Assembly (NCBI GenBank): GCA_034521815.1
Contig: JAXHLW010000012.1
Span: forward strand, 96,001 to 160,000
DNA from: Trueperaceae bacterium
GTDB taxonomy: Bacteria; Deinococcota; Deinococci; Deinococcales; Trueperaceae
Direction: 5' to 3'
DNA length: 64,000 nt
Shown here: one piece after another, positions 11,463-56,870 of the stretch
How the letters are laid out: every line of letters begins with the position of its first letter
Position numbering within the stretch: the stretch's first letter is position 1
Notes under the pieces: model-generated
Told to the model about the DNA's origin: nothing
Databases searched by the model: none
What the model saw: the letters and a program-made list of their open reading frames with translations, nothing else
Position numbers and translations under genes: made by a program

Positions 11463-12296
11463 CTAGATCGCGTGCTTCGCGATGAACTCGTACAGCGGCA
11501 GGCTCGCTTCCAGCAGCGGCTTCAGCCGCTCGGGGAACGGCTCGTCGCTGGGGCGGTACGGCTCGAACCCGGTCGAGCGGTGCACGTTCGCGTACCAGTG
11601 CCGCGCCCACACGCCGTCCTCGGGCTTCGGGCCGGCGGGCCACGACAGCATCGCCGGCTCCCAGGCGATCCCCCACGCTTCGCACGCGCGCTTCAGCACG
11701 CCCTCCGGATCGCGGAGCAGTCGGGTGGCGTCCAGCACGACCGGCGTGCGGCCCTCGGAGAGCTCGCGCGAGAGCAGCGCCGCCTGCTCGCCGAGCCCGG
11801 TGTCGGCCAGCGTCGGCTCGGGCATCTTCTTCGCCAGCGAGGGCAGCATCTCGTGCGGATCGCGCGTGAGCAGGGCGTGCTCCAGGTGGCGCAGGAAGCC
11901 CGGGCTCAGCACCCGCATGTGGTGCGCCATGTTCTTGTACACCCGCAGCGTCGTGCCGGGCGGGATCTCTCCCGGCCGGCCACGCTGGGCGTAGCCGGTC
12001 GTGCCCGGTCCCGCGGGCGGCGCGTCGCCCAGCAGGGTCCGCTCGACCACCCGCTGGCCGACGGTGTCCATCGCGTCCAGGACCTCGTCTCGGCCGGGGT
12101 GATCGACCGCGGCGTGGGTCGCGAGGTAGTGGCCGTAGAGCGGCTCGTCGAAGACGACGGCGTCGCTGCGTTGCCGGAACGCGTACATCAGCGCCGTCGA
12201 GACGTTGCGCGGTCCCGACCAGATCGACAGGCGCCGGACGGCTGGGTCGGGGGGCCGCTGCGCGTCGAGGCGAAGGTCGATCGGCTCGGCGCTCAC
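11463..12296 (-). CDS. Sulfotransferase-like P-loop protein
   Basis: WSGPRNVSTALMYAFRQR, DEPLY, KNMAHH, DGVWARHWY, STGF. Confidence 0.8.
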   Translation of the reverse strand: MSAEPIDLRLDAQRPPDPAVRRLSIWSGPRNVSTALMYAFRQRSDAVVFDEPLYGHYLATHAAVDHPGRDEVLDAMDTVGQRVVERTLLGDAPPAGPGTTGYAQRGRPGEIPPGTTLRVYKNMAHHMRVLSPGFLRHLEHALLTRDPHEMLPSLAKKMPEPTLADTGLGEQAALLSRELSEGRTPVVLDATRLLRDPEGVLKRACEAWGIAWEPAMLSWPAGPKPEDGVWARHWYANVHRSTGFEPYRPSDEPFPERLKPLLEASLPLYEFIAKHAI

Positions 12297-33472: not shown

Positions 33473-34219
33473 TCATACCGTGTCGGCGGCGGGCCGCTCC
33501 GCCTCGAGCAGCATCCGCTCGACCGCCGCGTGCGGGACGGGCGGCGTGGTGATCAGCGGATCGGCCTCGCCGAAGCCGCCGAACCACCGCACCGCTTCGG
33601 GTCCGTAGTCCACCCCGCGGTCCGGGCAACCGCGCGCGCCCAGCATGTCGGTCTCCTCGGGCGAGAGTCCGCTGGCGAGGACCAGGAACGGTCGGCCTTC
33701 GCGGGGGACGAGGCCCCGAGACGCCAACGCGGGCGAGATCGGCAGCGCCGCCACCTCGCTCCGGTACTGCACGAACACGAACGCGTCGGGATCGGCCGCC
33801 GCCGCCGCGCGGGCGCGCATCATGCGCGCCCGGTGCTGCTGCGCCTCGATGACGTCGACGCGGATCGCGAGCAGGTAGTCGACCTCTTCGGAGTCGGCAG
33901 CGGGCCGAAGCAGCGCCAGCGGTCCGTGGCGTAGCAGCGCCCGCGCGGCGCGCTCGTCGGCGGCGCCGCGGGCGGCCAGGCCGGCGAACGCGTTCTCCGC
34001 GACGCGGCGGCCCCGCTCGGTCAGGTGGAACTCGTGCTGGTCCGTCTTGGCGTCCAGGACCCCTGCGAGCAGGCCCTGGCCGCGCAGCCCCTGCACCAGG
34101 CGGGCCGACACCTCGCGGGCGTGATCGCTGGCGACGATCCACCACGCCCCGTGCTCCAGTCGGAGCACGCCGTCGCGCAGCGCGTGGAGCGCCAAGGTCT
34201 CTTCGGTCGAGAACGCCAT
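33473..34219 (-). CDS. Hypothetical protein with possible winged-helix-like N-terminus
   Basis: TAGGAT 6 nt before the ATG; normal composition; FHLTERGR resembles a wHTH wing. Confidence 0.6.
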   Translation of the reverse strand: MAFSTEETLALHALRDGVLRLEHGAWWIVASDHAREVSARLVQGLRGQGLLAGVLDAKTDQHEFHLTERGRRVAENAFAGLAARGAADERAARALLRHGPLALLRPAADSEEVDYLLAIRVDVIEAQQHRARMMRARAAAAADPDAFVFVQYRSEVAALPISPALASRGLVPREGRPFLVLASGLSPEETDMLGARGCPDRGVDYGPEAVRWFGGFGEADPLITTPPVPHAAVERMLLEAERPAADTV

Positions 34220-34250
34220 CGTCCCATCCTACGGCCCGGCGCGGCGGACG

Positions 34251-34814
34251 TCAGTCCCGTGTGCCGCTCGTGACGAGACGGACGTGCCGGAAGCTGCGTG
34301 CCGCCGCGTCGAACGGCGCCCAGTCGAAGCTCTCGTAGCGGCCGATCCGGTAGGTGCCGCCGGGCGCCTCGATCAGGTAGCCGCTCTCCTCGTAGGGGGT
34401 GCCGCCGGGCGTCTCGTAGAGCGAGGTGACGCGCAGGCCGGAGGTCGCGGCGTCGCCGAAGGTGAGCGGCTCGGTCGTCGCGTCGACGGGGAACGACTCC
34501 TTCAGCGCGCGCGGCAGGTCGCGGCCGGGGAGGAAGGTGATCGTCGCGTCGGGGACGGTGGGCTCGCCGCCAAAGAAGCCGTGCAGGAACCACTGACCGC
34601 CGGCCGGAGCCAGGGCGTGGCTGGGCGGCAGCTCGATCAGGAAGCCTTGATCGCTGTCGACCCAGGCGATCCAGTCATTGGGCGTGGTCGGAGGGCCGGT
34701 TTCGGCGCCTGGCGAGGCGGGATCGGCTGCGACGGCGGGACCGACGACGACCATGAGCCAGGCCGCAGCCAGCAGGAAAGAGCGCGCAAGACCGGTCTCG
34801 AACGGAGGGTTCAT
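34251..34814 (-). CDS. Secreted hypothetical protein
   Basis: Signal peptide ending AVAA; TTGACC-N18-GATGCT-N6-ATG. Confidence 0.65.
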   Translation of the reverse strand: MNPPFETGLARSFLLAAAWLMVVVGPAVAADPASPGAETGPPTTPNDWIAWVDSDQGFLIELPPSHALAPAGGQWFLHGFFGGEPTVPDATITFLPGRDLPRALKESFPVDATTEPLTFGDAATSGLRVTSLYETPGGTPYEESGYLIEAPGGTYRIGRYESFDWAPFDAAARSFRHVRLVTSGTRD

Positions 34815-34958
34815 GGTCCGAGCATCCGACGTGCCGCCCCCAGCGGTCAACCCACCGCGGGTGCGATGCGTCCGCGGCAGCTCCGCGAGGCGGCATCGGA
34901 CAGAAGCCGCCTCGAAACGGGGACATACAGCCGATAACCAGCGTGATAGCGTCTGATG

Positions 34959-35261
34959 ATGCCGAGCTTCCACTTCGAGCTGTACGTCGCGGGGGACGCC
35001 CCCCGTTCACGTACGGCGGTGCGTTCCCTGACGGAGCTGTGCGAGGAGCGCCTGAGCGGCCGCTACGAGCTGGACGTCATCGACGTGTTGGCGCACCCCG
35101 AGCGGGCGGAGCAAGCCAAGATCTTGGCGACCCCGACACTGCTGAGGCTGCGTCCAGCGCCACGCGTCCGCATCGTCGGCGATCTCAGCCTGACGGCGAA
35201 CGTGGTGGCAGGACTCGGACTCGACGGCGAGGACGAAGGCGACGAGAGGGACGACGCATGA
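34959..35261 (+). CDS. kaiB: KaiB family protein
   Basis: ELYVAG, LDVIDV, ILATPTL, RIVGDLS; TAGCGT 6 nt before ATG 34959. Confidence 0.93.
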   Translation: MPSFHFELYVAGDAPRSRTAVRSLTELCEERLSGRYELDVIDVLAHPERAEQAKILATPTLLRLRPAPRVRIVGDLSLTANVVAGLGLDGEDEGDERDDA

Positions 35262-36862
35262 CGAAGATGGAGCGGAAGCGCGCGGAGAAGGTGCCCAGCG
35301 GTATTCCCGGGCTGGACCTCGTCTCCAAAGGGGGCTTGCCGTCCGCACGCTCCGTGGTCGTGGCCGGCACCTCCGGAAGCGGCAAGACGGTGTTCGGGGC
35401 GCAGTTCCTCGCGGCCGGGATCACGGAGATGGGCGAGCCCGGCGTGTTCGTCACCTGCGAGGAGTCGCCGGAGGACATCCGGGCCAACATCGCCAGCTTC
35501 GGCTGGGACGTTCCTCGCTGGGAGGAGGAGGGCACCTGGCGTTTCGTGGACGCCTCCCGGAATCTGGACGACGTGCCGGTCCGTGCCGGCGGGTACGACC
35601 TGGCGGCGCTGCTGGCGCGGATCGAGGACGCCGTCGCCCGCGTGGGGGCGAAACGTGTCGTCGTCGATTCCCTCGACGCGCTCTTCAGTCGGTTCGAGGG
35701 CGACGCCGCCTTTCGGCACGAGCTGCACCGCGTCATCGGCCTGCTGAACTCGTTGGGCGTGACGACCGTGCTCACCGCCGAACGCGACTCCGACTACGGG
35801 GCCAACTCCCGGCGCGGGGTCGAGGAGTTCGTCGCCGACAACCTGATCCTGCTCCGCAACGTCCTGAGCTCCGAGCGCCGCCGCCGCACGCTGGAGATCG
35901 TGAAGTTCCGTGGCGCGACGCACGACAAGGGCGAGTTCGGGTTCTCCATCACCCCGAAGGGGATCTCGGTCATCCCGCATCTCGACATCGGGCACGATCG
36001 CGTCATGTCGAACGATCGCCTGTCGATCGGCAACCCCGACGTCGACGCGATGTGCGATGGCGGGATCTTTCGCGATTCGGTCATGCTCGTGTCGGGAGCG
36101 GCGGGCACCGGCAAGACGCTCCTCACCGCCGCGTTCGTGGACTCGGCCGCGAGGGACGGAGAACGCTGCCTGGTGTTCTCTTTCGAGGAGCGGCGCGAGC
36201 AGTGGTTCCGCAATGCGAAAGGCTGGGGCTACGACTTTCACCAGCTGGAGCAGGACGGGCTGTTGAAGGTCGTGAGCGACTACCCGGAGGTCGCGACCCT
36301 CGAGGATCACCTGTTGGCGATCACGGCGGAGGTCGAGACGTTCAAGCCGCAACGCATCGCCATCGACAGCCTGTCGGCCCTGGAGCGGGTGGCCACGCCC
36401 GACTCGTTCCGGAAGTTCGCCGTGAGCCTGAGCGCCTACCTGAAGCACCACGGGATCACCAGCCTGTTGACGTCGACGACGCCCACCTTCCTGGGCGGCG
36501 CCTCGCCCAACGAGGCGCATCTGTCGACCGTGACCGACCTCATCATCCTGCTGCGGCACACCGAGATCGGAGGCGAGCTGCGGCGCGGCCTGACGGTGCT
36601 CAAGATGCGCGGCTCGCGCCACGACCACGGCGTCCGCGAATTCACGGTCGACGAGAACGGGATGACCTTGGGCGCGCCGTACGAGACACCCTTCGGCCTC
36701 ACGAAGGAGATCGGCGTCCTTCGGCCGAGTACGCTCGATGTCACGGACGCGGAAGTGGACGAGGACGAGGACGCGGAGGAGGACGCAGACGCGAACCCCG
36801 ACGGAGAAGCGAACGCCGACACGGGAGAAGGGCCGGACACGGACGAAGATTCCTGGCGATGA
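35258..36862 (+). CDS. kaiC: KaiC family double-domain ATPase
   Basis: CI: GTSGSGKT, EE, KFRG. CII: GAAGTGKT, EE, IDSLSALER, HLSTVTD, KMRGS. ATGA overlap with kaiB. Confidence 0.95.
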   Translation: MTKMERKRAEKVPSGIPGLDLVSKGGLPSARSVVVAGTSGSGKTVFGAQFLAAGITEMGEPGVFVTCEESPEDIRANIASFGWDVPRWEEEGTWRFVDASRNLDDVPVRAGGYDLAALLARIEDAVARVGAKRVVVDSLDALFSRFEGDAAFRHELHRVIGLLNSLGVTTVLTAERDSDYGANSRRGVEEFVADNLILLRNVLSSERRRRTLEIVKFRGATHDKGEFGFSITPKGISVIPHLDIGHDRVMSNDRLSIGNPDVDAMCDGGIFRDSVMLVSGAAGTGKTLLTAAFVDSAARDGERCLVFSFEERREQWFRNAKGWGYDFHQLEQDGLLKVVSDYPEVATLEDHLLAITAEVETFKPQRIAIDSLSALERVATPDSFRKFAVSLSAYLKHHGITSLLTSTTPTFLGGASPNEAHLSTVTDLIILLRHTEIGGELRRGLTVLKMRGSRHDHGVREFTVDENGMTLGAPYETPFGLTKEIGVLRPSTLDVTDAEVDEDEDAEEDADANPDGEANADTGEGPDTDEDSWR

Positions 36863-37705
36863 GCAGGCGCTCGCGTGCCCCCGATCCGGATCAGCTGCGG
36901 ATCATCTACGATCGGATGACGGACGGCGTCCTCGTCATCGACGATGGCGGGATCATCCTGGCGGCCAACCCGGCGGCCAGGGGGATGCTGCCGGAGGGGG
37001 ACTCCGGGCTGGAGGGCGAGGTGTTCGGGTTTCCGATCGCGGACCGTCGCGCGGTGGTGATCGAGATCCTTTCGCCCGGCGGTGTCGTACGGACCGTGGA
37101 GATGCGCGTCTCTCACCTCGAGTGGCGCGGGGAGCCGGCCCGGCTTCTGATCCTGCGTGACATCACCGAACAGACGGCACTGCTTCAACGCCTGCATCGC
37201 GCGGCCAACTACGACCCGGTCACCGACTTGCCGAACCGGATGCTCTTTTTCGAGCACATCGACCAGGCGATTCGTGAGGCCCGCCGCCACGACCACCGGG
37301 TGGGCCTGCTGTTCGTCGACTTCGACGGCTTCAAGCGTGTCAACGATACCTATGGGCACGACGTCGGCGACCGTCTCCTGCGCCAGATCGGCCAGCGGCT
37401 ACGACAGGCGCTTCGTGAAGAAGATCGCGTCGCACGCTTCGCCGGCGACGAGTTCCTGGTCACGCTGACGGAGGTGAAGGACGTGAACGAGGCGAGCATC
37501 GTCGCCGGCAAGCTTGCTGGCGGCGTTCGACGACCCGTTCGAGCTGGACGATGGCGTCCTCATCACCACGTCGGCAAGCATCGGTATCGCGTTCTTCCCC
37601 GACGACGCGGTGGACGCCTCCGAGCTGCTCAGGCGCGCCGACGCCGCCATGTACCGAGCCAAGGCGCAGGGCGGCCATCGCTTCTGTCTCCACGCCACGC
37701 CCTAG
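36859..37705 (+). CDS. PAS-GGDEF diguanylate cyclase (indel near 37510-37520)
   Basis: PAS; DPVTDLPNR, FKRVNDTYGHDVGD, REED I-site, AGDEF; C-terminus SASIG...ADAAMYRAK in the next frame; ATGA overlap with kaiC. Confidence 0.85.
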
Positions 37706-39011
37706 TCGTCAGCGCCGGCACGCTTGGCTTCGTACATGGCCCGATCGGCGGCGTCCAGCAGGGCGGCAGGCGAGGTCGCGTCGTGCGGGTAGGACGAGAT
37801 TCCGATGCTTGCCGAAATGTGGAAAGGCCGTTCTGCGATCTGGAAAGGAACCTCGAGGGCATCTCGAATCTTCTGGGCGACCAGCTCGACATCGTCGCGA
37901 TGCTGGGCTCCGGTGATGATCACGGTGAACTCATCGCCGCCATGACGGGCGACCGTATCTTCCTCCCGGACGCATTCGGAAAACCGCTGGGCCACCTCGC
38001 TCAGCAATGCGTCCCCGACTTCATGGCCGAACGAATCGTTGACGTCCTTGAAGCCATCGAGATCCACGAACAGCACGGATAGGGGCAGGTCGCTGCGTTC
38101 TGCGTGTTTGATCTCCTGTTCCAAGCGGTCCAGGAAGAGACGACGATTCGGCAGTCCGGTCAGAAGGTCATGGTGGGCGGCGTGCTGAATCTTTTCCTCG
38201 GCGAGTGCCTGTTCGGTGATGTCCCGGAAGATACAGACCGTTGTTTCGGTGCGCTGATCCTCGTCCAGCACGGGCGCTAGCAGATAGTCGAACCGTTCGC
38301 CGCGGCCAGAAGCGAAGGTGTGGACGAACTTGCCTCGGTAGGTGGACTGGTCGGCGATCACCGTTTCCAGGTTGTGCTGCAGTTCCGAGGCGAACGGAAA
38401 CTCGAGCTCGAAGAGGGATTTGCCGATGATCGCCTCGCGCTCCAGAGCGAACAGGTCCGAGGTGGCCTTGTTCGCATAGACGAATCTGCCCTCGAGATCC
38501 AGCACGAAGACCGGATCGGGCGATGCGAGCAGAACGGCGCCGAACAACCGGGTCTCGATCTCTTTCTCGGTCGAATACTGCCTCACCGACTCGGCGACGG
38601 CCTGGTCGATCGCCTCATGGAACCTGGTGAGGTCCGCAAGCTGTCGATCGGTAACCGTTGGATGGGCCTTCGTCCAGTGTGAGACCACGCTCGCACGCAG
38701 GGCCCGAAACTCGGACGTCGTCTCCATGATGTTGAAGCCGCTGGCGAGTCGATCGCTCCCGTGCACTTCTGCCGCGGAGTCCTCCTCATCGTCCGGCGCA
38801 TGGCCTTTCGACTTGGCGTCCTGTTCCGTTTCGCTCTGGTGCGAATCGAGATCCTCGGCGATCTCGAGAAGCATTTCCCTAGCGTGGTCGCGCAGTCCGG
38901 TCTTGCCCATGTACCTGGCAGGAAAGACCGTCTTGGCGAATGCCTCCGATCCTCGAGAATCGGGTCCATTTCCGACCGAATGAATTCGGCTAGTCCCATG
39001 TTCATCGGCAT
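37702..39011 (-). CDS. Sensor (RsbRD_N-like)-PAS-GGDEF diguanylate cyclase (indel near 38950)
   Basis: GAGGAG RBS; GLAEFIRSEMDPILE, then EAFA...AAEVHGSDRLASGF...SEFRALRASV; PAS; DLLTGLPNR, GGDEF. Confidence 0.85.
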
Positions 39012-39075
39012 CGCCCTGGCTCCTCGACGAGTCGACGCGTCCCACCGGAACGCAAGACGCATCGACCTGTACACC

Positions 39076-39200
39076 CTTCCCGTCTCGGAAGGCCTCATGG
39101 GCCACCAGCGGCGGGCGAGCCGTTCCTGGTGCCGCTGGCGAGTCCCTCATCGCGGCGCCGTCGGCGATGGCCACCGTCATCCTGATGGCGCGCAACGCGC
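39076..39200 (+). pseudogene. Degenerate ~125-bp copy of an internal marC segment (direct repeat of 41521-41648)
   Basis: Shared runs CGGAAGGCCTCATGGGCCACCAG, GCGGGCGAGCCGTTCCTGGTGCCGCTGGCGA and ATCCTGATGGCGCGCAACGCGC. Confidence 0.9.
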
Positions 39201-39286
39201 AGCAGCGCCCGCGCCGAGCCCAGGGTCAGCACGTGCTGTGCACAGTTGCTCTTGCGTTCCCATGTAGCAAGCGTTCTATACTGGTT

Positions 39287-41101
39287 CTGGCGCTTTCCCT
39301 GAACGAAGCGCATCGTGCCGCCATCCTCGAAGACGCGCAAGATGCGCTGATGGTGACCGATGCAGACGGTGCGTTGCTATACATGACCGCCGCCGCCGCG
39401 CACCTCTACGGGTTCGAAGAACGAGAAGGGGCGCAGCTCGAGAGCCTCAACCTCCAGCGTTACGCGCTCGAAACCTTCGAGCTACGCACCCTTGCGGGCG
39501 ATTCCGTGCCGGAGGACGAACAGCCCTTAGCGCGGGTCCTGCGGGGAGAGGCCTACCAGAACGTCGAGCTCCTCGTACGGCACCGGGAGAAGGACGAGAC
39601 GCGGGTGTTCGTGTTCAGCGGGCGCACCGTGCACACCGATCCACCCATCGGTGTGCTGTGGATCCGCGACGAGACCGACCGCTGGAAGGCCGAGCGACGC
39701 TACCGCACGACGTTCGAAGCCGACCCGGCGCCCAACCTCATCGCGCGTCTCGAGGACGAGCAGATCCTCCAAGCCAATGCCGGCATGCTGGAGATGCTGG
39801 GCAGCGACAAGAGCGACATCGTCGGGACCCCCCTCTCGGAACTCAAGCTGTATTCGAGAGACGACGGCTTGACGACGAGCCTCGACGCGCTCCGCGCTGG
39901 CGAGCGGATCCACAAGCGGAAGGCGACGCTCCGACCCTCTTCGGGCGGTGGGGAGCCCACGGACGTCCTGGTCTCCGCACGCGCCATCGAGATCGACGGC
40001 GAGCCCTGCGGCCTCTTCACGTTCATCGACGTGACGGAGCTCGAACGCAGCCAACGACAGAATGTCGAGCTCTTCGCACGAGAGACGGAAGCCCGCAAGA
40101 AGGCGGAAGCCGGTCGGGCGCGGCTGGAATCCGTCCTCGAGCAAGCTCCCGCGCTCATGGCCACCCTCGAAGGCCCCGAGCACGTCTTCACGACCGCCAA
40201 CCATGAATATCGCGCGTTCTTCGCCGGCCGAGAAATCGTCGGGCGGCGGGTGATCGACCTGCTCCCCGAGATCGAGGCTCAAGGGATCATCGGAATCCTC
40301 GACGACGTGTACCGAACGGGCGAGTCCTTCTCCAGCAAGGAGCTGCCCATCGACCTCGACCGGCACGGCATAGGGCACGTCGAGCGTCACTACTTCAACC
40401 TGGTGTACCAACCGCTGCGCGACGACGACGACCGCACCATCGGCGTCCTGGTCAATGCCGTCAACATCACCGAGCAGGTCGAGGCGAGAAAGCGTGCGGA
40501 GTCGATGCGTGCCGAGATGGAAGCCGCCTATGAACACACCATCGAGGGGTGGGCCAGGGCGTTGGACCTGCGCGACGAAGACACGGCGGGTCACAGCCAA
40601 CGGGTGACGGACATGACGGTGGCCCTGGCCAGGCAGTTCGGAATCTCGGGGGACGCGCTGGAGGGCGTGCGCAGGGGCGCGCTGCTGCACGACATCGGCA
40701 AGATGGGCGTCCCGGACGCCATCCTGCTGAAGCCCGGCAAGCTCACGGCCGACGAGTGGACCGTGATGAAGGGCCACACCGTGTACGGCCGTGACCTGCT
40801 GCAGCCGATCGCCTTTCTCGCGTCCGCGATCGATATTCCCTACTGTCACCACGAAAGGTGGGATGGCACCGGCTACCCCAGGGGGCTTCGAGGAGAGGAC
40901 ATCCCGCTGGCCGCACGCGTCTTCGCGGTGGTGGACGTGTACGACGCGCTCATGTCCAACCGCCCCTACCGCGACGCATGGCCCCGCGACCAGGTACTGG
41001 AGCACCTGCGAGAAGGAGCGGGAAGCCACTTCGATCCGAGCATCGTCGAGGCGTTCCTGAACATGCCGAGCGGCCAAGCCGCCACCGCCACCACCGAATA
41101 G
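39287..41101 (+). CDS. Triple-PAS HD-GYP c-di-GMP phosphodiesterase (start uncertain)
   Basis: Three PAS-like domains; GHSQRV, LHDIGK, HHERWDGTGYP; TATACT at 39277-39282. Confidence 0.88.
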   Translation: MALSLNEAHRAAILEDAQDALMVTDADGALLYMTAAAAHLYGFEEREGAQLESLNLQRYALETFELRTLAGDSVPEDEQPLARVLRGEAYQNVELLVRHREKDETRVFVFSGRTVHTDPPIGVLWIRDETDRWKAERRYRTTFEADPAPNLIARLEDEQILQANAGMLEMLGSDKSDIVGTPLSELKLYSRDDGLTTSLDALRAGERIHKRKATLRPSSGGGEPTDVLVSARAIEIDGEPCGLFTFIDVTELERSQRQNVELFARETEARKKAEAGRARLESVLEQAPALMATLEGPEHVFTTANHEYRAFFAGREIVGRRVIDLLPEIEAQGIIGILDDVYRTGESFSSKELPIDLDRHGIGHVERHYFNLVYQPLRDDDDRTIGVLVNAVNITEQVEARKRAESMRAEMEAAYEHTIEGWARALDLRDEDTAGHSQRVTDMTVALARQFGISGDALEGVRRGALLHDIGKMGVPDAILLKPGKLTADEWTVMKGHTVYGRDLLQPIAFLASAIDIPYCHHERWDGTGYPRGLRGEDIPLAARVFAVVDVYDALMSNRPYRDAWPRDQVLEHLREGAGSHFDPSIVEAFLNMPSGQAATATTE

Positions 41102-43307: not shown

Positions 43308-44459
43308 TCAGGTCGCGCGCTCGGGTCGCGGGGTCGCCCGGCCCGGCTCGAGGATCTCGCGCGCCGACGCCCGCCCCTTCTCGGTGAGGATCAGGCGCTG
43401 GCCGTGACGCTCGATCACGCCGGCGTCCAGGCTGCGGGCCACCACCTCGCGCGCCTTGGCGTCGCGCCACGACAGGTGGGTGCCCAGCGCGCTCAGCACG
43501 TTCTCCTCGCCCGCGGCGGGGGTGCCCTCGTGCTGGTGCAGGTGCACGGCCAGCGCGCGGTTCTCGTTCGCCTCGCGCTGGCCGCGCCGCCGGAGCTCCT
43601 GCGCGACCAGGCCGTAGCGGGGTCCCAGCAGGAACGCGCCGGCCAGGAACGCGCCGGTCACGACCGCCATCATGCCGCCGATCGACACGTCCCACGCCAC
43701 GGCGAGCAGGTAGCCGATCACGCTGGACGCCACGGCGATGCCCGACGCGTACGCCAGGATGCGCCACAGCCGGTCGGTGAGCAGGTACGCCGCGGAGGGC
43801 GGAACGATGACGAACGCCAGGAACAGCACCACCCCGACGGCGTCGAACGCGGCGACGGCGGTGGCGCTGGTCAGTCCCAGCAGCAGGTAGCTCAGCGTCG
43901 CCGGCGCGAACCCCAGCGCCGCCCCCAGGCCGGCGTCGAAGGTCGTGAGCTTCAGCTCCTTGTAGAACGCGAGCACGAACGCGAGGTCCACCACGGCGAC
44001 GACCGCCATCCACAGCAGCGCGTCCGGCACCTGCACGCCCAGAACCGTGACCACGTCCAGCCAGACGAAGCCGATCTCGCCCAGCAGCACGGTGTGGGCG
44101 TCGATGTGAACGTCGCGCGCGTACACGTTCAGGAGCAGCACGCCGACCGAGAAAAGCACAGGAAACACGAGCCCGATGGCGGCGTCGCCCGCCATGCGCC
44201 GCGTCCGCGCCAACGCCTCGGTCGCGACCACGGTCAGCAGCCCCGTCAGGGCCGCCCCCACGATCTGGACCGGGCCGGAGCTCTGGCCGGTGAGCATCCA
44301 GACGATCACGATGCCGAACAGGATCGAGTGGCTGATCGCGTCGGCCAGCATCGCGTCGCCCCGCAGGATCAGGAAGGTGCCGAGGAGCGATCCGGCGACG
44401 CCGACCAGCGCGCCGGTCGTCACGATCGCGAACGGGATCGAGGTGAGGAGCTCGCTCAC
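43308..44459 (-). CDS. Mn/Fe/Zn ABC permease (TroD-like) with C-terminal soluble extension
   Basis: DAISHSILFG, YKELKLTTFD, DAVG; tail ends LILTEKGR. Confidence 0.88.
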   Translation of the reverse strand: MSELLTSIPFAIVTTGALVGVAGSLLGTFLILRGDAMLADAISHSILFGIVIVWMLTGQSSGPVQIVGAALTGLLTVVATEALARTRRMAGDAAIGLVFPVLFSVGVLLLNVYARDVHIDAHTVLLGEIGFVWLDVVTVLGVQVPDALLWMAVVAVVDLAFVLAFYKELKLTTFDAGLGAALGFAPATLSYLLLGLTSATAVAAFDAVGVVLFLAFVIVPPSAAYLLTDRLWRILAYASGIAVASSVIGYLLAVAWDVSIGGMMAVVTGAFLAGAFLLGPRYGLVAQELRRRGQREANENRALAVHLHQHEGTPAAGEENVLSALGTHLSWRDAKAREVVARSLDAGVIERHGQRLILTEKGRASAREILEPGRATPRPERAT

Positions 44460-45628
44460 CTGCGTCCCCCGTTCACGCCTTCGTTCTGGCCTTCGTCGTC
44501 TCGGCCTTCGTCGCCGGGAAGCCGGGACGCCTCCTCGCTGCCCGTCTCGGTCAGCACCCAGTGGACGCCCTCCTCGGGCCGGTGTTCGACGCGGCGCACC
44601 CAGCCACGCTGGTCCAGGTGGCGGAGCAGCCCGGCGGTGGACATCCCGAAGTAGGTGTCCAGCATGCCTTGCTCGGTGGCGTAGTCGGGATGGCCGTGCT
44701 CGGAGGCCAGCCGGTCCATCGTGGCCAGCACCTGCCGAGCCCGCAAGGCACGACCGCTTCGCGCGCGTCGGATCGCCGCCGCGATCAGGCCCCTGTTCGG
44801 AGCGAACGCCAGCGAGATCGCCGTGATGACGGAGAGGCTCAGCACGATCAGCGGGCCGGTGGCCAGCCCGCGTCCGGTGGCGCTGATCAGGGCGCCGACC
44901 ACGCCGCCTACCGCTCCGAACGTCGAGGCGAGGATCACCATCGTGCTCAGCCGCTCGGTCCACTGGCGCGCCGCGACGGCGGGGGCGACGATCATCGCCG
45001 ACATCAGCACCACGCCCACCATCTGCAGGCCCAGCACCACGGCCAGCGCGATCATCGCCGTCATGATCGCGTCCAGGGCGACGATCGGCAGGCCCAGCGA
45101 GGCGGCGAACAGCGGGTCGAACGTCGCCGCCTTGAGCTCCTTCCAGGTGGCCGCGACCAGGGCGATCGACACCACCGTGACGGCCCCCATGATCCATAGA
45201 TCGCTGCGCAGGATGGCGGCCGCTTGACCGAACAGGAACGTCTCGAGCCCGGCCTGGCCGGCACCGGCGCGCCCTTGCACGAAGCTCAGCAGCACCACGC
45301 CGGCCGCGAAGTACACGCTCAGCGCCACGCCCAGCGACGCGTCGGTCTTGAGGCGACTGCGGCGAACGAGCAGCAGCATCGTCAGCGCGGCCAGGATGCC
45401 GGTCGCCAGGGCTCCGGCCAGGACGGCGCTCAGCGAGCGGCCGCCGGCGATCAGGAACCCCAGCGCGATCCCGGGAAGCGCGGCGTGCGAAAGCGTGTCG
45501 CCCAGCAGGCTCTGCTTGCGGAGCACCGCGAACGACCCCAGCGCGCCGCTGGTCACGCCCAGCAGAATCGCGCCCGCCGCGACGGTACGGAGCGTGTAGT
45601 CACCGAACAGGGCGATGGCGGTCTCCAT
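44456..45628 (-). CDS. Mn/Fe/Zn ABC permease (TroC-like) with C-terminal wHTH-like tail
   Basis: DTLSHAALPG, WKELKAATFD, LQMVGVVL; tail WVLTETG. Confidence 0.88.
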   Translation of the reverse strand: METAIALFGDYTLRTVAAGAILLGVTSGALGSFAVLRKQSLLGDTLSHAALPGIALGFLIAGGRSLSAVLAGALATGILAALTMLLLVRRSRLKTDASLGVALSVYFAAGVVLLSFVQGRAGAGQAGLETFLFGQAAAILRSDLWIMGAVTVVSIALVAATWKELKAATFDPLFAASLGLPIVALDAIMTAMIALAVVLGLQMVGVVLMSAMIVAPAVAARQWTERLSTMVILASTFGAVGGVVGALISATGRGLATGPLIVLSLSVITAISLAFAPNRGLIAAAIRRARSGRALRARQVLATMDRLASEHGHPDYATEQGMLDTYFGMSTAGLLRHLDQRGWVRRVEHRPEEGVHWVLTETGSEEASRLPGDEGRDDEGQNEGVNGGRR

Positions 45629-45629
45629 C

Positions 45630-46397
45630 TCAGTCGGTCGCCCCCGGAACGCCGCTGCCCTCCAGCAGCGCGACCTGTCCGCCGTAGGTGGCGCGAAGGT
45701 TGCCTGCGGTGTAGACCTCCTCGACCGGCCCTTGGGCGATCGCCCGCACGTTCAGGAACATCATCCAGTCGAAGGTGGTGCGGACCGTCTGAAGGTCGTG
45801 ATGCACCACCACGACCGTCTTTCCTTGGTCGCGCAGCTCCCTGAGCACGTCCACGATGGCGCGCTCGGAGGTGGCGTCGACGCCCGCCATCGGCTCGTCC
45901 AGGAAGTACACGTCGGCGTCCTGCACCAGGGCGCGAGCCAGGAAGGTGCGCTGCTGCTGGCCGCCCGAGAGCTGCGCGATCTGTCGGTCGCGGTAGTCGC
46001 TCAGGCCGACCTGCTCCAACGCGGCGAGGGCGCGCGCCCGCTCGGCGCGGCCGGGGCGACGAAGCCAGCCCAGCCGTCCGTACAGGCCCATCTCGACGAC
46101 GTCGGCGACGGTGGTGGGGAAGTCCCAGTCCACGCTGGTGCGTTGCGGCACGTACCCGACCCGGTGCCGCTGCTCGGCGTACGGCCGGCCGAACAGGGAC
46201 ACGTGGCCCGCGGTGGGCCGGATCAGGCCCAGGACCGCCTTGATCAGCGTGCTCTTGCCCGCTCCGTTGGGGCCGACGATGGCGGCCATCACGCCTGGTG
46301 GCACGTCGAGGTCCACGTCCCACAGCACCGGCTTGGCGTGGTACGCGACGGTGAGGTCCTCGACGTGGACCGCGAGGTCCGGCTCGTGCAGACTCAC
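45630..46397 (-). CDS. Metal ABC transporter ATP-binding protein (TroB/MntB)
   Basis: GPNGAGKS, YVPQRTSVDWDFP, LSGGQQQR, LDEP, VHHDL. Confidence 0.92.
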   Translation of the reverse strand: MSLHEPDLAVHVEDLTVAYHAKPVLWDVDLDVPPGVMAAIVGPNGAGKSTLIKAVLGLIRPTAGHVSLFGRPYAEQRHRVGYVPQRTSVDWDFPTTVADVVEMGLYGRLGWLRRPGRAERARALAALEQVGLSDYRDRQIAQLSGGQQQRTFLARALVQDADVYFLDEPMAGVDATSERAIVDVLRELRDQGKTVVVVHHDLQTVRTTFDWMMFLNVRAIAQGPVEEVYTAGNLRATYGGQVALLEGSGVPGATD

Positions 46398-47497
46398 GGA
46401 GCGGTTCTGTCCGCGATCCCGTAGCGGTCGGCCCAGGCGTGCAGCGCGCTCGGGAGGGGAGGCACCTCGCCGCCCAACGCGCCCACGATCGCGACGGTGT
46501 TGGCGTGCAGCATGCCGATGTACGTGCCTTCGGCGGTGCCCGGCTCGCCCATGGCGTCGGAGTAGAGCGTGCCGCCCAGCTCGACCGACGCGCCCATGTC
46601 GGCGGTCGCGTCCAGGACCGCTTGGATCGTGCGCGGGTTGATCGTCGTCTCGATGAAGACGGCGGGAACGCCGCTGCGGGCGATGGTCTCGGCGGTGCCG
46701 CGGATGTCGGCGATCGACGGCTCGGCGTCGGTGCTGACGCCCTGGATGCCGACCACGTCGAGCCCGTAGGCGCGGCCGTAGTACGCGAACGCGTCGTGCG
46801 CCGTGACCAGCACGCGGTTCGCCTCGGGCACGGTCGCGACGGCCTCGTCGATCCAGTCGTGGAGGGCGCCCAGCTCCGCGTCGTGCGCGGCGGCCCTCTC
46901 GCGCACGCCCTCCGCGCAGCCGGGCGCGAGCTCGGCCAGCGCCGCGGCGATCGGCTCCAGCGTTCCGGCCCACAGCGACACGTCCATCCAGACGTGGGGG
47001 TCGACGCCGTAGGCGCTGGAGACCCGGATCCGGCGCTCGGCGGGCACGCCCGCCTCGGACACCGCGAGCGTCGACGTCCGTTCGCCCAGGCGCTCCAGGA
47101 CGTCGCCCAGCTGGCCTTCGAGCGTCAGGCCGCCGTAGAGGATCAGATCCGCGCGGCTCAGCTGGCGGACGTCGCCCGATGTGGCCTGGTACAGGTGCGG
47201 ATCGACGCCGGGGCCCATCAGGGAGACGACGTCGGTGCAGGCGCCCCCGATGGTCGCAGCGGTGTCGCCGACCATGCCGACCGTGGCGACGACGCGAACG
47301 GGGGCGTCCACGGGACCGTCCTGAGCCAGCGCCGGACCGAACAGCGCGAGGCCGAACAGCGTCAGGCCGAACAGCGTCAGGCCGAACGGTGTGAGCTTGG
47401 ACAGCGCTAGGCCGGCGAAAAGCGGGCGACGGGCGAGAAGGCGGGCGCGGCGTCGATTGCGCCTACCCTCGTGAGATTTTACGGCGTCCCTAAACAT
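46394..47497 (-). CDS. Metal ABC substrate-binding protein (TroA/MntA); start uncertain
   Basis: GVDPHLY, DPHVW, HDAFAYY, LYSD. Confidence 0.9.
   Translation of the reverse strand: MFRDAVKSHEGRRNRRRARLLARRPLFAGLALSKLTPFGLTLFGLTLFGLALFGPALAQDGPVDAPVRVVATVGMVGDTAATIGGACTDVVSLMGPGVDPHLYQATSGDVRQLSRADLILYGGLTLEGQLGDVLERLGERTSTLAVSEAGVPAERRIRVSSAYGVDPHVWMDVSLWAGTLEPIAAALAELAPGCAEGVRERAAAHDAELGALHDWIDEAVATVPEANRVLVTAHDAFAYYGRAYGLDVVGIQGVSTDAEPSIADIRGTAETIARSGVPAVFIETTINPRTIQAVLDATADMGASVELGGTLYSDAMGEPGTAEGTYIGMLHANTVAIVGALGGEVPPLPSALHAWADRYGIADRTAP
47336..47395. repeat. 15-bp tandem repeat x4 (GCCGAACAGCGTCAG), encoding LTLFG repeats in a signal peptide
   Basis: Directly visible. Confidence 0.88.
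47476..47497 (-). promoter_or_regulatory. Candidate DtxR/MntR operator overlapping the TAAAAT -10 of the troABCD operon
   Basis: AT-rich imperfect inverted repeat TTTAGGGACGCCGTAAA in GC-rich context. Confidence 0.5.
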
Positions 47498-47590
47498 GCG
47501 ATCACGGTAGTCCGGACGCTCGTGGCTGTCAAGCGCCGCCGCGGGAATCCAGGTCACCCATCAGGATCGCGACGCAAAGTACAGTCGGGC

Positions 47591-48292
47591 ATGACGACGA
47601 CGGAGCGTCCCTGGTTCGTGACCGACAGCGGGTTCAGCCGTCGCCTGGACGAAGCGGATCGCAGCGTGTTCATGCGCGTCTGCCCGGAGCGACGCTACGC
47701 GAGAGACGAGCACATCTTCCGCGAGGGCGACCCCGCGACGTCGCTGCACGTCGTCGCCAAGGGCCGCATCAAGCTCACCCGCCTCACGCCCGACGGGCGC
47801 GAGCGGATCCTCGCCATCGTCGGACCGGACGACATGATCGGCGAGGCGTTCCTTCGCCCCGACGCCGAGTACCTCGCCGACGCCGTGGCGTTGGGCGACG
47901 ACGTGGTCACCTGCCCGATGTCGCGTGGGCAGTTCCAGCAGCTCTCGCTGCAGGCGCCGACGTTCGTGCTGGCGTTCGCCGAGATCCTGGCGGGCAACCT
48001 GTTCCGCTGCCGCGATCAGCTCACCGGGGGGTACGCCCCGATCAAGGTGCGCGTCGCGCTCACGCTGCTCGACCAGGCCCGTCGCTTCGGGCACCCCGCG
48101 GCCGACGACGAGGACTGGCTGGAGCTCGAGACCGAGCTTCGTCACGAGGAGATCGCCTCGATGATCGGGGCGACACGCGTCTCGGTGTCCACCTCCGTGG
48201 CCGACCTGCGCAACGACGGCCTGGTCGAGGGCACGCGGGGCCGCTACCGGCTCCACGCCCCGTCGATCGAGGCGCTCGAGCTCGAGCTCTGA
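47591..48292 (+). CDS. Crp/Fnr family transcriptional regulator
   Basis: IFREGD, GE, EIASMIGATRVSVS; TACAGT 5 nt before the ATG. Confidence 0.92.
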   Translation: MTTTERPWFVTDSGFSRRLDEADRSVFMRVCPERRYARDEHIFREGDPATSLHVVAKGRIKLTRLTPDGRERILAIVGPDDMIGEAFLRPDAEYLADAVALGDDVVTCPMSRGQFQQLSLQAPTFVLAFAEILAGNLFRCRDQLTGGYAPIKVRVALTLLDQARRFGHPAADDEDWLELETELRHEEIASMIGATRVSVSTSVADLRNDGLVEGTRGRYRLHAPSIEALELEL

Positions 48293-48884: not shown

Positions 48885-49598
48885 CTAGCGGTACTCGGGG
48901 TTCGGATGGCCGACGAGGTGTGCGGTGCCCTCGGCACTGCGCTGGTTGCCGTGGGCAGGGATCCCGCCCGACGCCCGCAGCATCGTGGCCAGGTGGATCA
49001 GGTTCCAGCTCATGAACGTCACGTTGCGCTGGGTGAAGTCGTTCTCGGGGCCGCCCGAGCCCGGATCCAGGTAGGAGGGGCCCGGACCGGCCTCGCCGAT
49101 CCAGCCGGCGTCCGCCTGCGGCGGGATCACGAAGCCGAGATGCTGCAGCGCGTACAGCAGGCTCATCGCGCTGTGCTTCACGCCGTCCTCGTTCCCGGTG
49201 ATGATCGTTCCGGCGACCTTTCCGTAGTACACGTACTGGCCCTGCTCGTTCGTCAGGCCGGACATCGCGTAGAGACGCTCGACCACGCGGCGGATCACCG
49301 ACGACGGCTCGCCCAGCCAGATGGGGGTGCCCAGGACCACGATGTCGGCGCCCTGAACCCGGTCCCAGATCGCGGGCCAGTCGTCGCGTGCCGCCCCGTG
49401 CTCGGTCATGTCCGGGTAGACGCCCGGCGCGATCTCGTGATCGACGGCGCGGAGCGTCTCGACCTCGACGCCGCCGCTCTGCAGCACGGCACGAGCGACG
49501 TTCATCAGCCCTTCGGTGTGCGACAGCGTGGGCGACGGCTTGAGGGTCCCGTTGACGAACAGGGCGCGGAGCGGACGGTCGGTCGAACGTTCGGTCAT
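48885..49598 (-). CDS. Flavodoxin-like NADPH-dependent FMN reductase family protein
   Basis: NGTLKPSP..SHT, GTPIWLG, TGNEDG, WIGEAGPGPSY. Confidence 0.88.
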   Translation of the reverse strand: MTERSTDRPLRALFVNGTLKPSPTLSHTEGLMNVARAVLQSGGVEVETLRAVDHEIAPGVYPDMTEHGAARDDWPAIWDRVQGADIVVLGTPIWLGEPSSVIRRVVERLYAMSGLTNEQGQYVYYGKVAGTIITGNEDGVKHSAMSLLYALQHLGFVIPPQADAGWIGEAGPGPSYLDPGSGGPENDFTQRNVTFMSWNLIHLATMLRASGGIPAHGNQRSAEGTAHLVGHPNPEYR

Positions 49599-50279
49599 GC
49601 GAGGTCTCCTTGGGGGTGGCGCCCATCTCGTGGACGTCGCTCCTCGGCCGGCAACGACGACTCGAGGTCGAGGAACAGGCGGGTCAGCACGGGATCGAAC
49701 TGGCGTGCCGCGGCGCGCTGGATCTCATCTCGCGCGGCAGCGCGCGACCACGCCTCCTTGTACGGTCGAACGCTCGTGAGCGCGTCCCACACGTCGACGA
49801 TCGTGAAGATGCGCGCTCCCAGCGGGATGGCGTCGCTCGCCAACCCGTCTGGATAGCCGGTCCCGTCCCACCGCTCGTGATGATGACGGACGACCTCCAG
49901 CGTCTCGGCCGGCAACGACGGCACGTCGGCCAGCATCCGCACGCCGTCGGCGGCGTGCTCGCGGATGCGCTCACGCTCGCGATCGCTCAGGCGCCCCGGC
50001 TTGAGCAGGATCGCGTCGGCACCGGCGTAGCTTTCCGATGTCGTGCAGGTAGGCCCCCCAACGCACCGCGCGGCGCACCGAGCGATCGAGCCCCAGCCTT
50101 TCGGTGACGCGGTCCGTCCACGCGACGACGCGGTCGGTGTGGCCGCGGGTCTCGTAATCGCGAAGCTCCAACGCGCGGCCCAACGCCAGCACCGTGCCCT
50201 CGAACGTCTCGTGGATCTCGCGGACGCACCCCGCGTGCGCCCGCTCGATCGAGCGGCTGGCGTCCTTGGGGCGGGGCAT
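49595..50279 (-). CDS. Stand-alone HD-GYP domain protein (indels near 50020)
   Basis: RDYETRGHTDRV, LHDIGK, then AILLKPG...HHERWDGTGYP in another frame. Confidence 0.75.
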
Positions 50280-53094: not shown

Positions 53095-53901
53095 TCAGCC
53101 CAGCGCGACGTCCAGCGACAGCATGACGGCGAGGCCGACCATCGTGCCCAGCGTCGCGACGCGCTCGTGGCCACGAGCGTGCGTCTCGGGAACGATCTCG
53201 TCGAGGATCACGTACAGCATCGCGCCGGCGGCGAAGCCCATCGCGTACGGCAGGGCGGGCTGGGCGATGGTGACCGCCCAGGCGCCGAACACGGCGAGGG
53301 GAATCTCGACGGCGCCGGCGCGGGCGCCGACGAACGCGGCGTACCAGAGCCCACCCAGTCCGGCGTTGCGCGCGGCGATGGCGACGGCGAACCCCTCGGG
53401 AACGTTCTGCAGGCCGATGGCCAGCATCAGCGCCACCGCCTCGGGGATGCGCCCCGAGCCGAACCCCACGCCCACCGCGAGGCCCTCGGGCATGTTGTGG
53501 AGGGTGATCGCGACGATGAACAGGATCACCGAGGCCATGCGGCCTTGACCGCCGGGCGCCGCGTCGTCCCGCCGTCGTCCGGTCACCAGCACGTGCACGT
53601 GCGGCACCCAGGCGTCCGCGCGGTCCAGGAACGCCACGCCCAGCGCGATACCGATGATCACCGGGACCAGGCCGCCGATCTCGATGCCGGGCAGGATCAA
53701 GCTCGTGAAGCTGGCCGCCAGCATCACGCCCGCCGCGAAGCCCAGCGCCGCGTCCAGCTGGCGCGACGTCGGGTTGCGCCACGGCACGATCGCCAGGGCG
53801 CCGATCAGGTTGAAGGTGGTGATGACGATGCCGGCCAGCAGGCCGAGCAGCACCGGGTGGGTGCCGAGGTTCGCGGTGATCCAGCTCTCGAGTCCGGTCA
53901 C
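53095..53901 (-). CDS. ZIP family divalent metal transporter (GufA-like)
   Basis: LHNMPEGLAVG, LQNVPEG, PHVH loop, EIVPETH. Confidence 0.92.
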   Translation of the reverse strand: MTGLESWITANLGTHPVLLGLLAGIVITTFNLIGALAIVPWRNPTSRQLDAALGFAAGVMLAASFTSLILPGIEIGGLVPVIIGIALGVAFLDRADAWVPHVHVLVTGRRRDDAAPGGQGRMASVILFIVAITLHNMPEGLAVGVGFGSGRIPEAVALMLAIGLQNVPEGFAVAIAARNAGLGGLWYAAFVGARAGAVEIPLAVFGAWAVTIAQPALPYAMGFAAGAMLYVILDEIVPETHARGHERVATLGTMVGLAVMLSLDVALG

Positions 53902-53914
53902 GTCTCGAGTCCGG

Positions 53915-54616
53915 TCACGGCAGCTGGTCGCGCAGGCGAGCGCTGGGCAGCGGCTCGCCACGGACGCGCTCCGCGAGGTCGCGCGACAGGGCGCAGGCGC
54001 GCCCGTCGACCTCGAGCTGGACGATCCCGCCCAGCGGCTCGCGGCCGGTGACGCGCACCGTGGCGCCGGGCTCGATGCCCAGCGAGGCGAGGTGCTCCAG
54101 CACGGCGCCGTCCTGGCTCAGCAGCCGCGCGACGCGCAGCTGGGCGCCACGCTCGACGTCCGTGAGCGGGTCGTCCGGCGTCGGGGGGACGGTGCCGTCG
54201 GCCCGGGGAATCGGGTCGCCGTGAGGATCGTGGCTGGGGTGGCCGAGGAGGTCGGCGAGGCGCTCCGCGAAGCGGTCGCTGACGGCGTGCTCCAACGCTT
54301 CCGCCTCGTCGTGGACCTCGTCCCAGCGGTAGCCGAGGTCGCGGATCATGAACGTCTCGATCAGCCTGTGCCGGCGGATCAGCCGGAGCGCCTCGTGGCG
54401 GCCGGTCTCGGTCAGCGTGGCGCCGCGATAGCGGACGTGCTCGACCAGGCCGGCCTCGTCCAGGCGCGCCAGCATGCCCGACACCGAGGCGGGGGTGAAG
54501 CCCAGCCGTCCGGCGATCGCGTTGGTGGACGCCTTGCCTTCGCGGGTGAGGCTCCAGATCGCCTTGAGGTAGTCGCCGGCGGCGTCACTGACGGGGGCGG
54601 AAAGCGGTTTCGCCAT
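53915..54616 (-). CDS. DtxR/MntR family metal-dependent repressor with FeoA domain
   Basis: DYLKAIW, RRHRLIE, VHDEAEALEH, DPHGDPIP. Confidence 0.93.
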   Translation of the reverse strand: MAKPLSAPVSDAAGDYLKAIWSLTREGKASTNAIAGRLGFTPASVSGMLARLDEAGLVEHVRYRGATLTETGRHEALRLIRRHRLIETFMIRDLGYRWDEVHDEAEALEHAVSDRFAERLADLLGHPSHDPHGDPIPRADGTVPPTPDDPLTDVERGAQLRVARLLSQDGAVLEHLASLGIEPGATVRVTGREPLGGIVQLEVDGRACALSRDLAERVRGEPLPSARLRDQLP

Positions 54617-54701
54617 GACGAAACTCAGTTTACGCCCGGCCATAGCGGTCGTCAATCGCCGACGTCCGCGGGCTCGATGTCCGCCTAGGCGGCGGCCTCC
54701 G

Positions 54702-56685: not shown

Positions 56686-56870
56686 GCGGAGCGCCTCGAC
56701 GGCGAGCGACGCGAGGGACGCGAGGGACGTGAGGGACGCGAGGGACGGTCCAGCGACGTGGCGAGCGAAGGCCGGATCACGCCGTGACGCTAGCATGCGC
56801 TCGCTGGCCGGGCATCGAGCGAGGAACGCCGACCACGGTCGTGCAGGCGCTGGGATCGGTACGATGCGTC

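Follow-up and report, generated by a model that had tools for sequence, protein, structure and literature searches.

Gene clusters that combine kaiB and kaiC with a signaling gene have been described in several bacteria. A study from 2011 reports that outside the cyanobacteria "almost all" kaiC-kaiB clusters have a gene for a histidine kinase, or one for a GGDEF/EAL protein, immediately downstream (De Luca et al., PMC3164672). In Rhodopseudomonas palustris and Rhodobacter sphaeroides, a kaiC-kaiB operon that also encodes a PAS-containing histidine kinase is described as part of a non-self-sustained, hourglass-like timekeeper (Ma et al. 2016, PMC4794148). A further system is that of KidA from Synechococcus elongatus, which is reported to consist of four PAS domains followed by a GGDEF and an EAL domain, and to bind fold-switched KaiB via its N-terminal PAS domains; its discoverers point to PAS genes that share operons with kaiBC outside the cyanobacteria, and suggest that PAS association may be general for the neighbors of kaiBC (Kim et al. 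2022, PMC9478674). The locus considered here lies in a stretch of 64,000 nucleotides from a Trueperaceae assembly (GCA_034521815.1, contig JAXHLW010000012.1, positions 96,001 to 160,000), the whole of which is called the window. It contains a three-gene kaiB-kaiC-(PAS-GGDEF) operon, the last gene of which encodes a small putative cyclase for cyclic di-GMP (c-di-GMP), a second messenger.

The operon type is thus already described, both as kaiBC with downstream kinase or GGDEF/EAL genes and in the form of KidA, and what is added here is a minimal version with a single PAS domain and a GGDEF domain only, in Trueperaceae-like bacteria. By its published description, KidA resembles the window protein in being a PAS-headed c-di-GMP enzyme tied to a Kai system, and the likeness of the PAS domains is to be understood at the level of that description. 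However, KidA is described as having been found by KaiB pull-down and not by adjacency to kai genes, and as belonging to a self-sustained clock that contains KaiA, whereas the window protein is translationally coupled to kaiC, has one PAS domain, GGDEF as its only output and 281 amino acids (aa), and is accompanied by no KaiA in the window. The example named in the 2011 study is given as a PAS-2PAC-GGDEF-EAL protein; the window protein lacks the EAL domain. The purple-bacterial operon, as published, is similar in that a KaiA-less Kai pair and a PAS-headed signaling gene are placed in one operon, but its gene order is kaiC-kaiB and its output is a kinase. In a literature search that excluded most subscription journals, and with the taxon figures of the 2011 and 2016 papers outside the comparison, no paper on a kaiBC-cyclase operon in the Deinococcota was found.

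An earlier note, made from the letters of the window alone, had described the three genes as chained by two ATGA overlaps, and both can be read in the sequence, at 35258-35261 (kaiB/kaiC) and at 36859-36862 (kaiC/PAS-GGDEF). The same note held that a gene order without conservation would speak against its reading. The order is in fact conserved within the KaiC clade of the window. The best-matching genome locus, L001, belongs to a Trueperaceae metagenome-assembled genome (MAG) and has the same three genes in the same order and spacing: a kaiB truncated at the end of the contig, kaiC, and, beginning 1 nt beyond the kaiC stop, an unbroken PAS-GGDEF gene of 286 aa. When the first 218 residues of the cyclase served as a protein query, 47 orthologue clusters were recovered (P0124-P0170; 52-86% identity), 45 of which are 276-303 aa long. 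The KaiCs most closely related to that of the window are 83-89% identical to it. As an indirect sign of synteny, nine of the 32 closest KaiC clusters (P0005-P0036) have a longest contig equal in size to that of a cyclase cluster (4155, 1915109, 3008, 9559, 3769, 3938, 2898, 2804 and 5616 bases). In a quick IQ-TREE phylogeny of KaiC (113 rows, LG+G4, built from survey and cluster sequences in place of named KaiC1/2/3 references), the window, L001 and the 32 close KaiCs form one clade, with a Shimodaira-Hasegawa-like approximate likelihood ratio test (SH-aLRT) value of 100 and a branch of 0.56. The arrangement in L001, the nine matching contig sizes, and the occurrence of the same PAS type beside kaiBC in other phyla (see below) support a link between kaiBC and the cyclase that is not accidental. 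The host had been thought to belong to the Deinococcota and, judged from these genes alone, that assignment holds: the nearest named KaiC (P0006, 83% identity) and the nearest named cyclase (P0126, 81%) both come from Trueperaceae MAGs, as does L001, and P0006 and P0126 list the same longest contig of 1,915,109 bases.

KaiC is a clear double-domain member of its family (Pfam PF06745, E 8e-112, in two stretches). Among NCBIfam models, it exceeds the cut-off of PRK09302 (603 bits, cut-off 408) but not that of TIGR02655 (see below). Its motifs were read from the translation and placed via alignments to Protein Data Bank (PDB) chains, and every one of those that the earlier note had listed is present: two Walker A motifs (GTSGSGKT, residues 37-44, and GAAGTGKT, 280-287), two EE pairs (E68/E69 and E310/E311), two arginine fingers (KFRG with R218 and KMRG with R451) and HLSTVTD (421-427). 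The last aligns with HISTITD, as had been proposed, so that S423/T424 correspond to S431/T432 with a numbering offset of +8; the chain that gives this numbering is presumably KaiC from S. elongatus. Among solved structures, the best match is 8zn5 (564 bits), followed by 1u9i (477 bits), which we take to be a cyanobacterial KaiC, and the 568-residue chain 8dba (321 bits), which we take to be KaiC from R. sphaeroides. The KaiC type of the purple-bacterial operon is thus more distant from the window protein than the cyanobacterial one. Alignments to cyanobacterial KaiC end at residue 470-476 of 534, and the C-terminal tail (residues 482-534, approximately, or 36700-36859 of the window; about the last 58 residues) is strongly acidic and does not align with any solved KaiC. 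This tail is common only to the closest relative, P0005, and is not conserved in the remaining clade. KaiC from R. sphaeroides has a coiled-coil C-terminal extension, and the unaligned acidic tail of the window protein also sets it apart from that type.

The structure 8ZN5 is of KaiC-beta, a reconstructed ancestor that is described as the node joining KaiC groups I-III and as showing no oscillation in vitro (Mukaiyama et al. 2025, PMC12081879). The same source defines group III as the KaiCs of "other bacteria" together with secondary cyanobacterial copies, and reports that the non-cyanobacterial member tested did not oscillate. Placement of the window KaiC in group III is suggested by the PDB bit scores, among which that of KaiC-beta is the highest. 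Since neither KaiC-beta nor the tested non-cyanobacterial group III protein oscillated in vitro, an hourglass would fit this likeness better than a clock.

KaiB is likewise recognizable (Pfam E 1.1e-23), and its residues 4-100 are collinear without a gap with the solved KaiB chain 2qke (E 2.7e-21). The earlier note had seen no kaiA and no SasA-type kinase gene in the window; in agreement, a search for KaiA, HisKA and HATPase_c domains gave no hit in the open reading frames (ORFs) scanned across the 64 kb, namely the 137 of 219 that have at least 110 aa and pass a filter on third-position G+C content (GC3). Two features expected of a self-sustained KaiABC clock are therefore lacking, as no KaiA is encoded in the scanned ORFs and the A-loop and tail of KaiC are not conserved.

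The third gene encodes a product of 281 aa across two reading frames (218 + 63). The Pfam GGDEF match is split accordingly, with profile positions 1-94 in frame A (E 4.1e-35) and 110-160 in frame B (E 3.1e-8), and frame A also has weak Pfam PAS matches. The cyclase had been described as carrying an AGDEF motif, an RxxD I-site and one indel, and all three were confirmed. In an alignment of 35 orthologue rows, the first motif position varies (AGDEF in 23, GGDEF in seven and SGDEF in five), while GDEF, RxxD, D-x-D, K-x-x-N-D and the C-terminal AK residues are kept in every row. An AlphaFold model of the orthologue with 86% identity (predicted local distance difference test score, pLDDT, 91.7) consists of a PAS domain, a helix and a GGDEF domain. 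In its PAS core, residues 44-65 form a loop with an FGFP motif in place of the usual helices, and a helix at 103-117 connects PAS to GGDEF. The modeled GGDEF domain superposes on solved active cyclases with a root mean square deviation of about 1 Å, and the nearest solved architecture is that of PA0861 (PAS-GGDEF-EAL). An AGDEF motif need not mean an inactive cyclase, to judge by VCA0965 of Vibrio cholerae, an AGDEF enzyme with an RxxD site that is reported to make c-di-GMP in vitro (Hunter et al. 2014, PMC3974145). VCA0965 is similar to the window cyclase in these two motifs; as described, its N-terminus is unrelated and it has no connection with Kai proteins.

As it stands in the given letters, the cyclase gene carries a frame-shift. 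Frame A stays homologous as far as IVAGK (37512), and frame B takes over at LLAAFDDPF (37514); because of a TGA at 37484-37486, frame B can be read only from 37487 onward. Alignment with 34 intact orthologues joins the two pieces without the gain or loss of a residue (IVAGK, then LLAAFDDPF), which indicates exactly one extra base near 37513, and the L001 cyclase reads through this position in one frame. Identity to the nearest orthologue, P0124, is 86% both before the break (188/218) and after it (54/63), and the break is thus either very recent or not real. Two other genes of the window are interrupted in the same way. In a D-2-hydroxyacid dehydrogenase gene on the plus strand, an extra base near 1176-1181 separates 902-1180 from 1191-1904; the halves match Pfam 2-Hacid_dh positions 1-85 and 91-133, and the latter half also has the NAD-binding domain. 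On the minus strand, an extra base just after the LHDIGK codons divides a stand-alone HD-GYP phosphodiesterase gene into 50031-50279 and 49598-50026; its N-terminal piece aligns with an intact HD-GYP neighbor up to LHDIGK (E 1e-12), and its C-terminal piece covers HD_5 positions 65-169. In total, three single extra bases were met during annotation, as opposed to a systematic scan, in 64 kb of otherwise well-kept genes.

Because two of these three one-base breaks lie in genes unrelated to the operon, an indel error in the assembly is likelier than gene decay as the cause of the break in the cyclase gene. It is possible, if on the doubtful side, that the break is real and that the gene is a recent pseudogene, which would leave KaiBC without a c-di-GMP arm or with only a truncated protein made of PAS and half a GGDEF domain. 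The given sequence does carry the extra base, and the damage to a second c-di-GMP gene, the HD-GYP gene at 49598-50279, could reflect a decay of c-di-GMP signaling. However, the third break concerns the dehydrogenase, which has no such connection, all three are single extra bases in a pattern typical of assembly indel errors, the conserved C-terminal GGDEF residues are kept beyond the break and identity is equal on both sides of it, and all but two of the 47 orthologue clusters are full length.

Two of the breaks (37505-37520 on the plus strand and about 50020-50035 on the minus strand) share the context GG(C/A) AAG C T, and the next codon of the old frame is in both a rare leucine codon (CTT or CTA). 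Coincidence, or an error of sequencing in this context, could account for the likeness. Programmed +1 frameshifting at AAG-C-T was considered and is unlikely, as the context at the third break differs and the lengths of the orthologues are those of a gene read in one frame. Furthermore, tRNA-Lys cannot re-pair on AGC after a +1 slippage.

The distribution of such operons was assessed in 80 kaiC loci, which rank first among 598 or more confirmed matches and were taken from one genome per species, with 46-65% identity. For each locus, Pfam was used to assign the ORF with a PAS match in the 1.5 kb downstream of kaiC; where there was none, the first ORF of at least 100 aa was taken instead. The downstream gene is of the histidine-kinase type in 40 loci and of the c-di-GMP type (GGDEF or GGDEF-EAL) in 14, a pattern that matches the one reported in 2011 and answers the suggestion in the earlier note that kaiBC-GGDEF synteny be surveyed. 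In three loci it encodes PAS or GAF only (one is cut by a contig end), in 18 it is unrelated or of no family, and five loci have no downstream ORF. Among the c-di-GMP loci, L001 has PAS-GGDEF, L066 has three PAS domains and GGDEF, and L069 and 11 Chloroflexota loci of a Chloroflexales-type clade have PAS-PAS-GGDEF-EAL. This output type occurs in three separate KaiC clades, the Trueperaceae-type clade, a pair from the Betaproteobacteria (support 99) and the Chloroflexales (support 100), in the last of which 11 of 14 rows have it.

The conserved component of these loci appears to be the PAS domain. When the window cyclase was used as a tblastn query, its PAS part (residues 10-105, approximately) matched just downstream of kaiC in 55 of the 80 loci, only upstream in seven, only elsewhere in two and not at all in 16, and the same query matched no other PAS domain of the window at E 1e-5. 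A profile was then built from 53 kaiBC-adjacent domains of other genomes, with the window excluded. The PAS domain of the cyclase scores 102.8 bits over profile positions 5-108, whereas the PAS domains of two neighboring genes score 22.5 and 15.2 bits. Scores across the loci are bimodal: the 53 training domains lie at 100-151 bits, and of 166 hits outside the training set, 27 lie at 97-143 bits, two at about 74, three at 30-57 and 134 below 30. Members of the subfamily thus span 97-151 bits, and generic PAS domains reach at most 31. The 27 strong additional domains likewise neighbor kaiBC, in an upstream or divergent gene, or else adjoin a second kaiB; they are carried by histidine kinases, by PAS-PAS proteins of about 400 aa without a recognized output, and by one REC-PAS-LuxR regulator. 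Altogether, 64 of the 80 loci have a Kai-type PAS domain within the fetched flanks. The domain is short, with near-invariant N37, G57, P59, W89 and D101 in the alignment. By its profile scores, the cyclase PAS domain belongs to a distinct and sharply bounded Kai-linked PAS subfamily, which occurs beside kaiBC in at least ten phyla, most often as part of a histidine kinase.

Searched against the PDB, the PAS profile returned only generic PAS domains (WalK, DosP and FixL, with E about 1e-10 or weaker) and no Kai-related structure, and the literature search, limited as described above, found no paper on a defined Kai-type PAS family. A census of the profile over 1.84 billion representatives (322,938 hits with E up to 0.001) was dropped, as the top 150 were dominated by giant multi-PAS proteins, in which the scores of many domains are summed, and gave no usable count of output domains.

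Several variations on the arrangement occur among the surveyed loci. In Chloroflexota, a second Kai-type PAS protein (PAS-PAS, about 400 aa, no recognized output) is encoded directly upstream of kaiB, approximately 1.2-1.5 kb before kaiC, in L042-L047, L049, L052, L053, L055, L059, L070-L072, L074 and L076, which are Chloroflexales-type loci and two from Anaerolineae; most of these have Kai-type PAS genes on both sides of kaiBC. In L062, a REC-PAS-LuxR (GerE) regulator (238-1452, plus strand) bears a Kai-type PAS domain, and in Gemmatimonadota such a domain is found on divergent histidine kinases encoded on the minus strand upstream of kaiB (L011, L018, L056, L067 and L078). These two cases indicate that neither the output nor the position of the domain is fixed. 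Within 6 kb, L013, L015, L040, L062, L066, L069 and L077 contain another kaiB or kaiBC set; in L066 the additional genes are a kaiC of 37% identity (10500-11828) and a kaiB (12204-12452), and in L077 the second kaiB is followed by a Kai-type PAS histidine kinase gene.

Taken together, the somewhat more probable account is that the operon encodes a KaiA-independent KaiBC timer that is read by a PAS domain, which in turn gates c-di-GMP synthesis; both the binding and the direction of signaling are inferred. In such a system, KaiC would autophosphorylate on S423/T424 without KaiA, as may be expected from the lack of conservation in its A-loop and tail and from the absence of kaiA from the window. 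KaiC and KaiB would form a non-self-sustained timer of the hourglass type, or else act as a sensor that responds to ATP/ADP. The state of the KaiB-KaiC complex could then be read by the short PAS domain at the N-terminus of the third protein, which would most likely dock on fold-switched KaiB as the PAS domains of KidA do, and the signal would pass via the linker helix at 103-117 to turn dimer-dependent c-di-GMP synthesis on or off, with the RxxD site contributing product inhibition. That the PAS domain may act as a coupling module whose output domain is exchanged is suggested by the same PAS type bearing histidine-kinase, GGDEF-EAL or DNA-binding outputs in other phyla.

Several observations weigh against a timer with c-di-GMP output. 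The frame-shift in the cyclase gene is one, and the departure of AGDEF from the canonical GGDEF motif is another. KaiC scores 513 bits on NCBIfam TIGR02655 and so misses the equivalog cut-off of 546, and KaiB is under both cyanobacterial NCBIfam equivalog cut-offs (78 against 110 bits and 75 against 145 bits). The residue T426 of KaiC is described as highly conserved and as important for dephosphorylation (PMC5520375); its counterpart here is N418 (36509-36511), and asparagine is also found in three of 23 aligned relatives, the others having threonine or serine. Of the 80 kaiBC loci, 16 have no Kai-type PAS domain in their flanks. The exclusion of KaiA covers this 64-kb window only. Finally, the precedent of KidA is one of clock tuning via PAS domains and not of regulation by the clock, so that signaling may run in either direction here.

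It may be, in line with that precedent, that the PAS-GGDEF protein is mainly an input to the timer or a tuner of it, with the cyclase answering other cues or with c-di-GMP feeding back. The PAS domain would then stabilize fold-switched KaiB and so alter the timing of KaiC. [quoted passage not shown] We nevertheless regard this role as unlikely here, as the only sensor domain of the cyclase is its one PAS domain, so that no separate input site is evident, and as the same PAS type heads a histidine kinase, a typical output device, in half of the loci surveyed. Translational coupling should lead to a roughly fixed stoichiometry, which is compatible with an output as well as with a tuner. Doubt may also attach to the enzyme itself. 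About a quarter of GGDEF domains are stated to be degenerate (PMC3974145), and the variable first motif position among the orthologues could be taken to mean that the AGDEF domain makes no c-di-GMP but serves as a nucleotide-binding receptor or scaffold. The invariance of the other catalytic and I-site motifs in all rows, the activity reported for a natural AGDEF enzyme, and the presence of a product-inhibition site, which is most sensible on an active cyclase, make this quite unlikely.

It is also conceivable that the genes are co-transcribed and nothing more, with KaiBC acting as a stress-response ATPase system and the cyclase signaling independently, without physical coupling. KaiBC from a non-phototroph, Legionella, is described as tied to stress resistance and not to rhythms (in PMC5520375), and the 16 loci that lack a nearby Kai-type PAS domain show that kaiBC can occur without it. 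Against this stands the PAS subfamily, sharply separate from other PAS domains, which stays by kaiBC in at least ten phyla while its outputs change. Such a place, kept across phyla, would be hard to explain otherwise, and a direct functional link is favored, with independent signaling judged improbable. A wider proposal is only tentatively made. The Kai-linked PAS domain of about 100 residues might be a portable docking module for the state of KaiB/KaiC, plugged into kinases, cyclases, cyclase-phosphodiesterases and a LuxR-type regulator, of which the Trueperaceae operon would be the smallest natural converter of a Kai timer into a second messenger.

Table. Positions in the window of the kaiBC-cyclase operon and of the sites discussed.
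Feature	Position	Strand	Basis or remark
TAGCGT hexamer	34947..34952	+	Present; possible -10 box of a leaderless transcript
kaiB	34956..35261	+	101 aa; ORF and Pfam KaiB
kaiC	35258..36862	+	534 aa, double domain; start overlaps kaiB stop in ATGA
KaiC S423/T424 codons	36524..36529	+	Counterparts of phosphosites S431/T432
PAS-GGDEF gene, frame A	36859..37512	+	First 218 codons; start overlaps kaiC stop in ATGA
Kai-linked PAS domain	36886..37197	+	102.8 bits, profile built without the window
RxxD I-site (REED)	37414..37425	+	Read from the sequence
AGDEF active-site motif	37441..37455	+	Read from the sequence; REED lies five residues upstream
Extra base (+1 shift of cyclase gene)	37513, or within a few bases	+	Orthologue alignment
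PAS-GGDEF gene, frame B	37514..37705	+	Last 63 codons and stop

The TAGCGT hexamer that had been proposed as the promoter of the operon is itself present. Its end is 3 nt from the first candidate ATG of kaiB and 6 nt from the second, and it could therefore serve only a leaderless transcript, possibly as a -10 box. Deinococcus has many leaderless mRNAs in which TANNNT directly precedes the ATG, and no GGAGG-like Shine-Dalgarno site precedes kaiB in the sequence. A sigma-70 consensus scan of 34200-39400 gave no promoter-like site, which neither supports nor contradicts this idea, and a terminator scan of the same region gave one terminator-like site, on the minus strand, where 2.4 were expected from shuffles. 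Rfam and tRNA scans of the 64-kb window, the G+C content of which is 72%, found nothing.

Genes related to c-di-GMP are abundant near the operon (37702-41101, 47471-48292 and 56784-58454). A convergent PAS-GGDEF gene of 497 aa (37702-39195, minus strand) has a stop that overlaps the cyclase stop in CTAG, a gene with three PAS domains and HD-GYP is located at 39167-41101, and a Crp-like regulator and a TPR-GGDEF gene are also in the neighborhood. These neighbors are not found after the cyclase in L001. Metal-uptake genes are clustered in the window (43308-47557, 53095-54655 and 10666-11412); they are part of its ordinary content and include a ZnuA-like binding protein, two ABC-3 permeases, an ABC ATPase, two ZIP transporters and a DtxR-type iron-dependent repressor with a FeoA domain.

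The operon bears on how a KaiA-less KaiBC system outside the cyanobacteria conveys its state to the cell, and offers a very small and fully soluble candidate system (KaiB of 101 aa, KaiC of 534 aa and PAS-GGDEF of 281 aa) for which intact orthologues exist and in which the product, c-di-GMP made from GTP, is easily measured in vitro. The sharply bounded PAS subfamily with exchangeable outputs, a by-product of the survey, may matter more than the operon, as it is a concrete and testable candidate for the general Kai-coupling module that the authors of the KidA study proposed. Should coupling fail in vitro, the operon would merely be another case of a co-transcribed signaling gene. If, however, the PAS domain is such a portable module, c-di-GMP, and with it the choice between sessile and motile life and the stress lifestyle, would track the day/night or energy cycle in a non-phototroph that has no KaiA.

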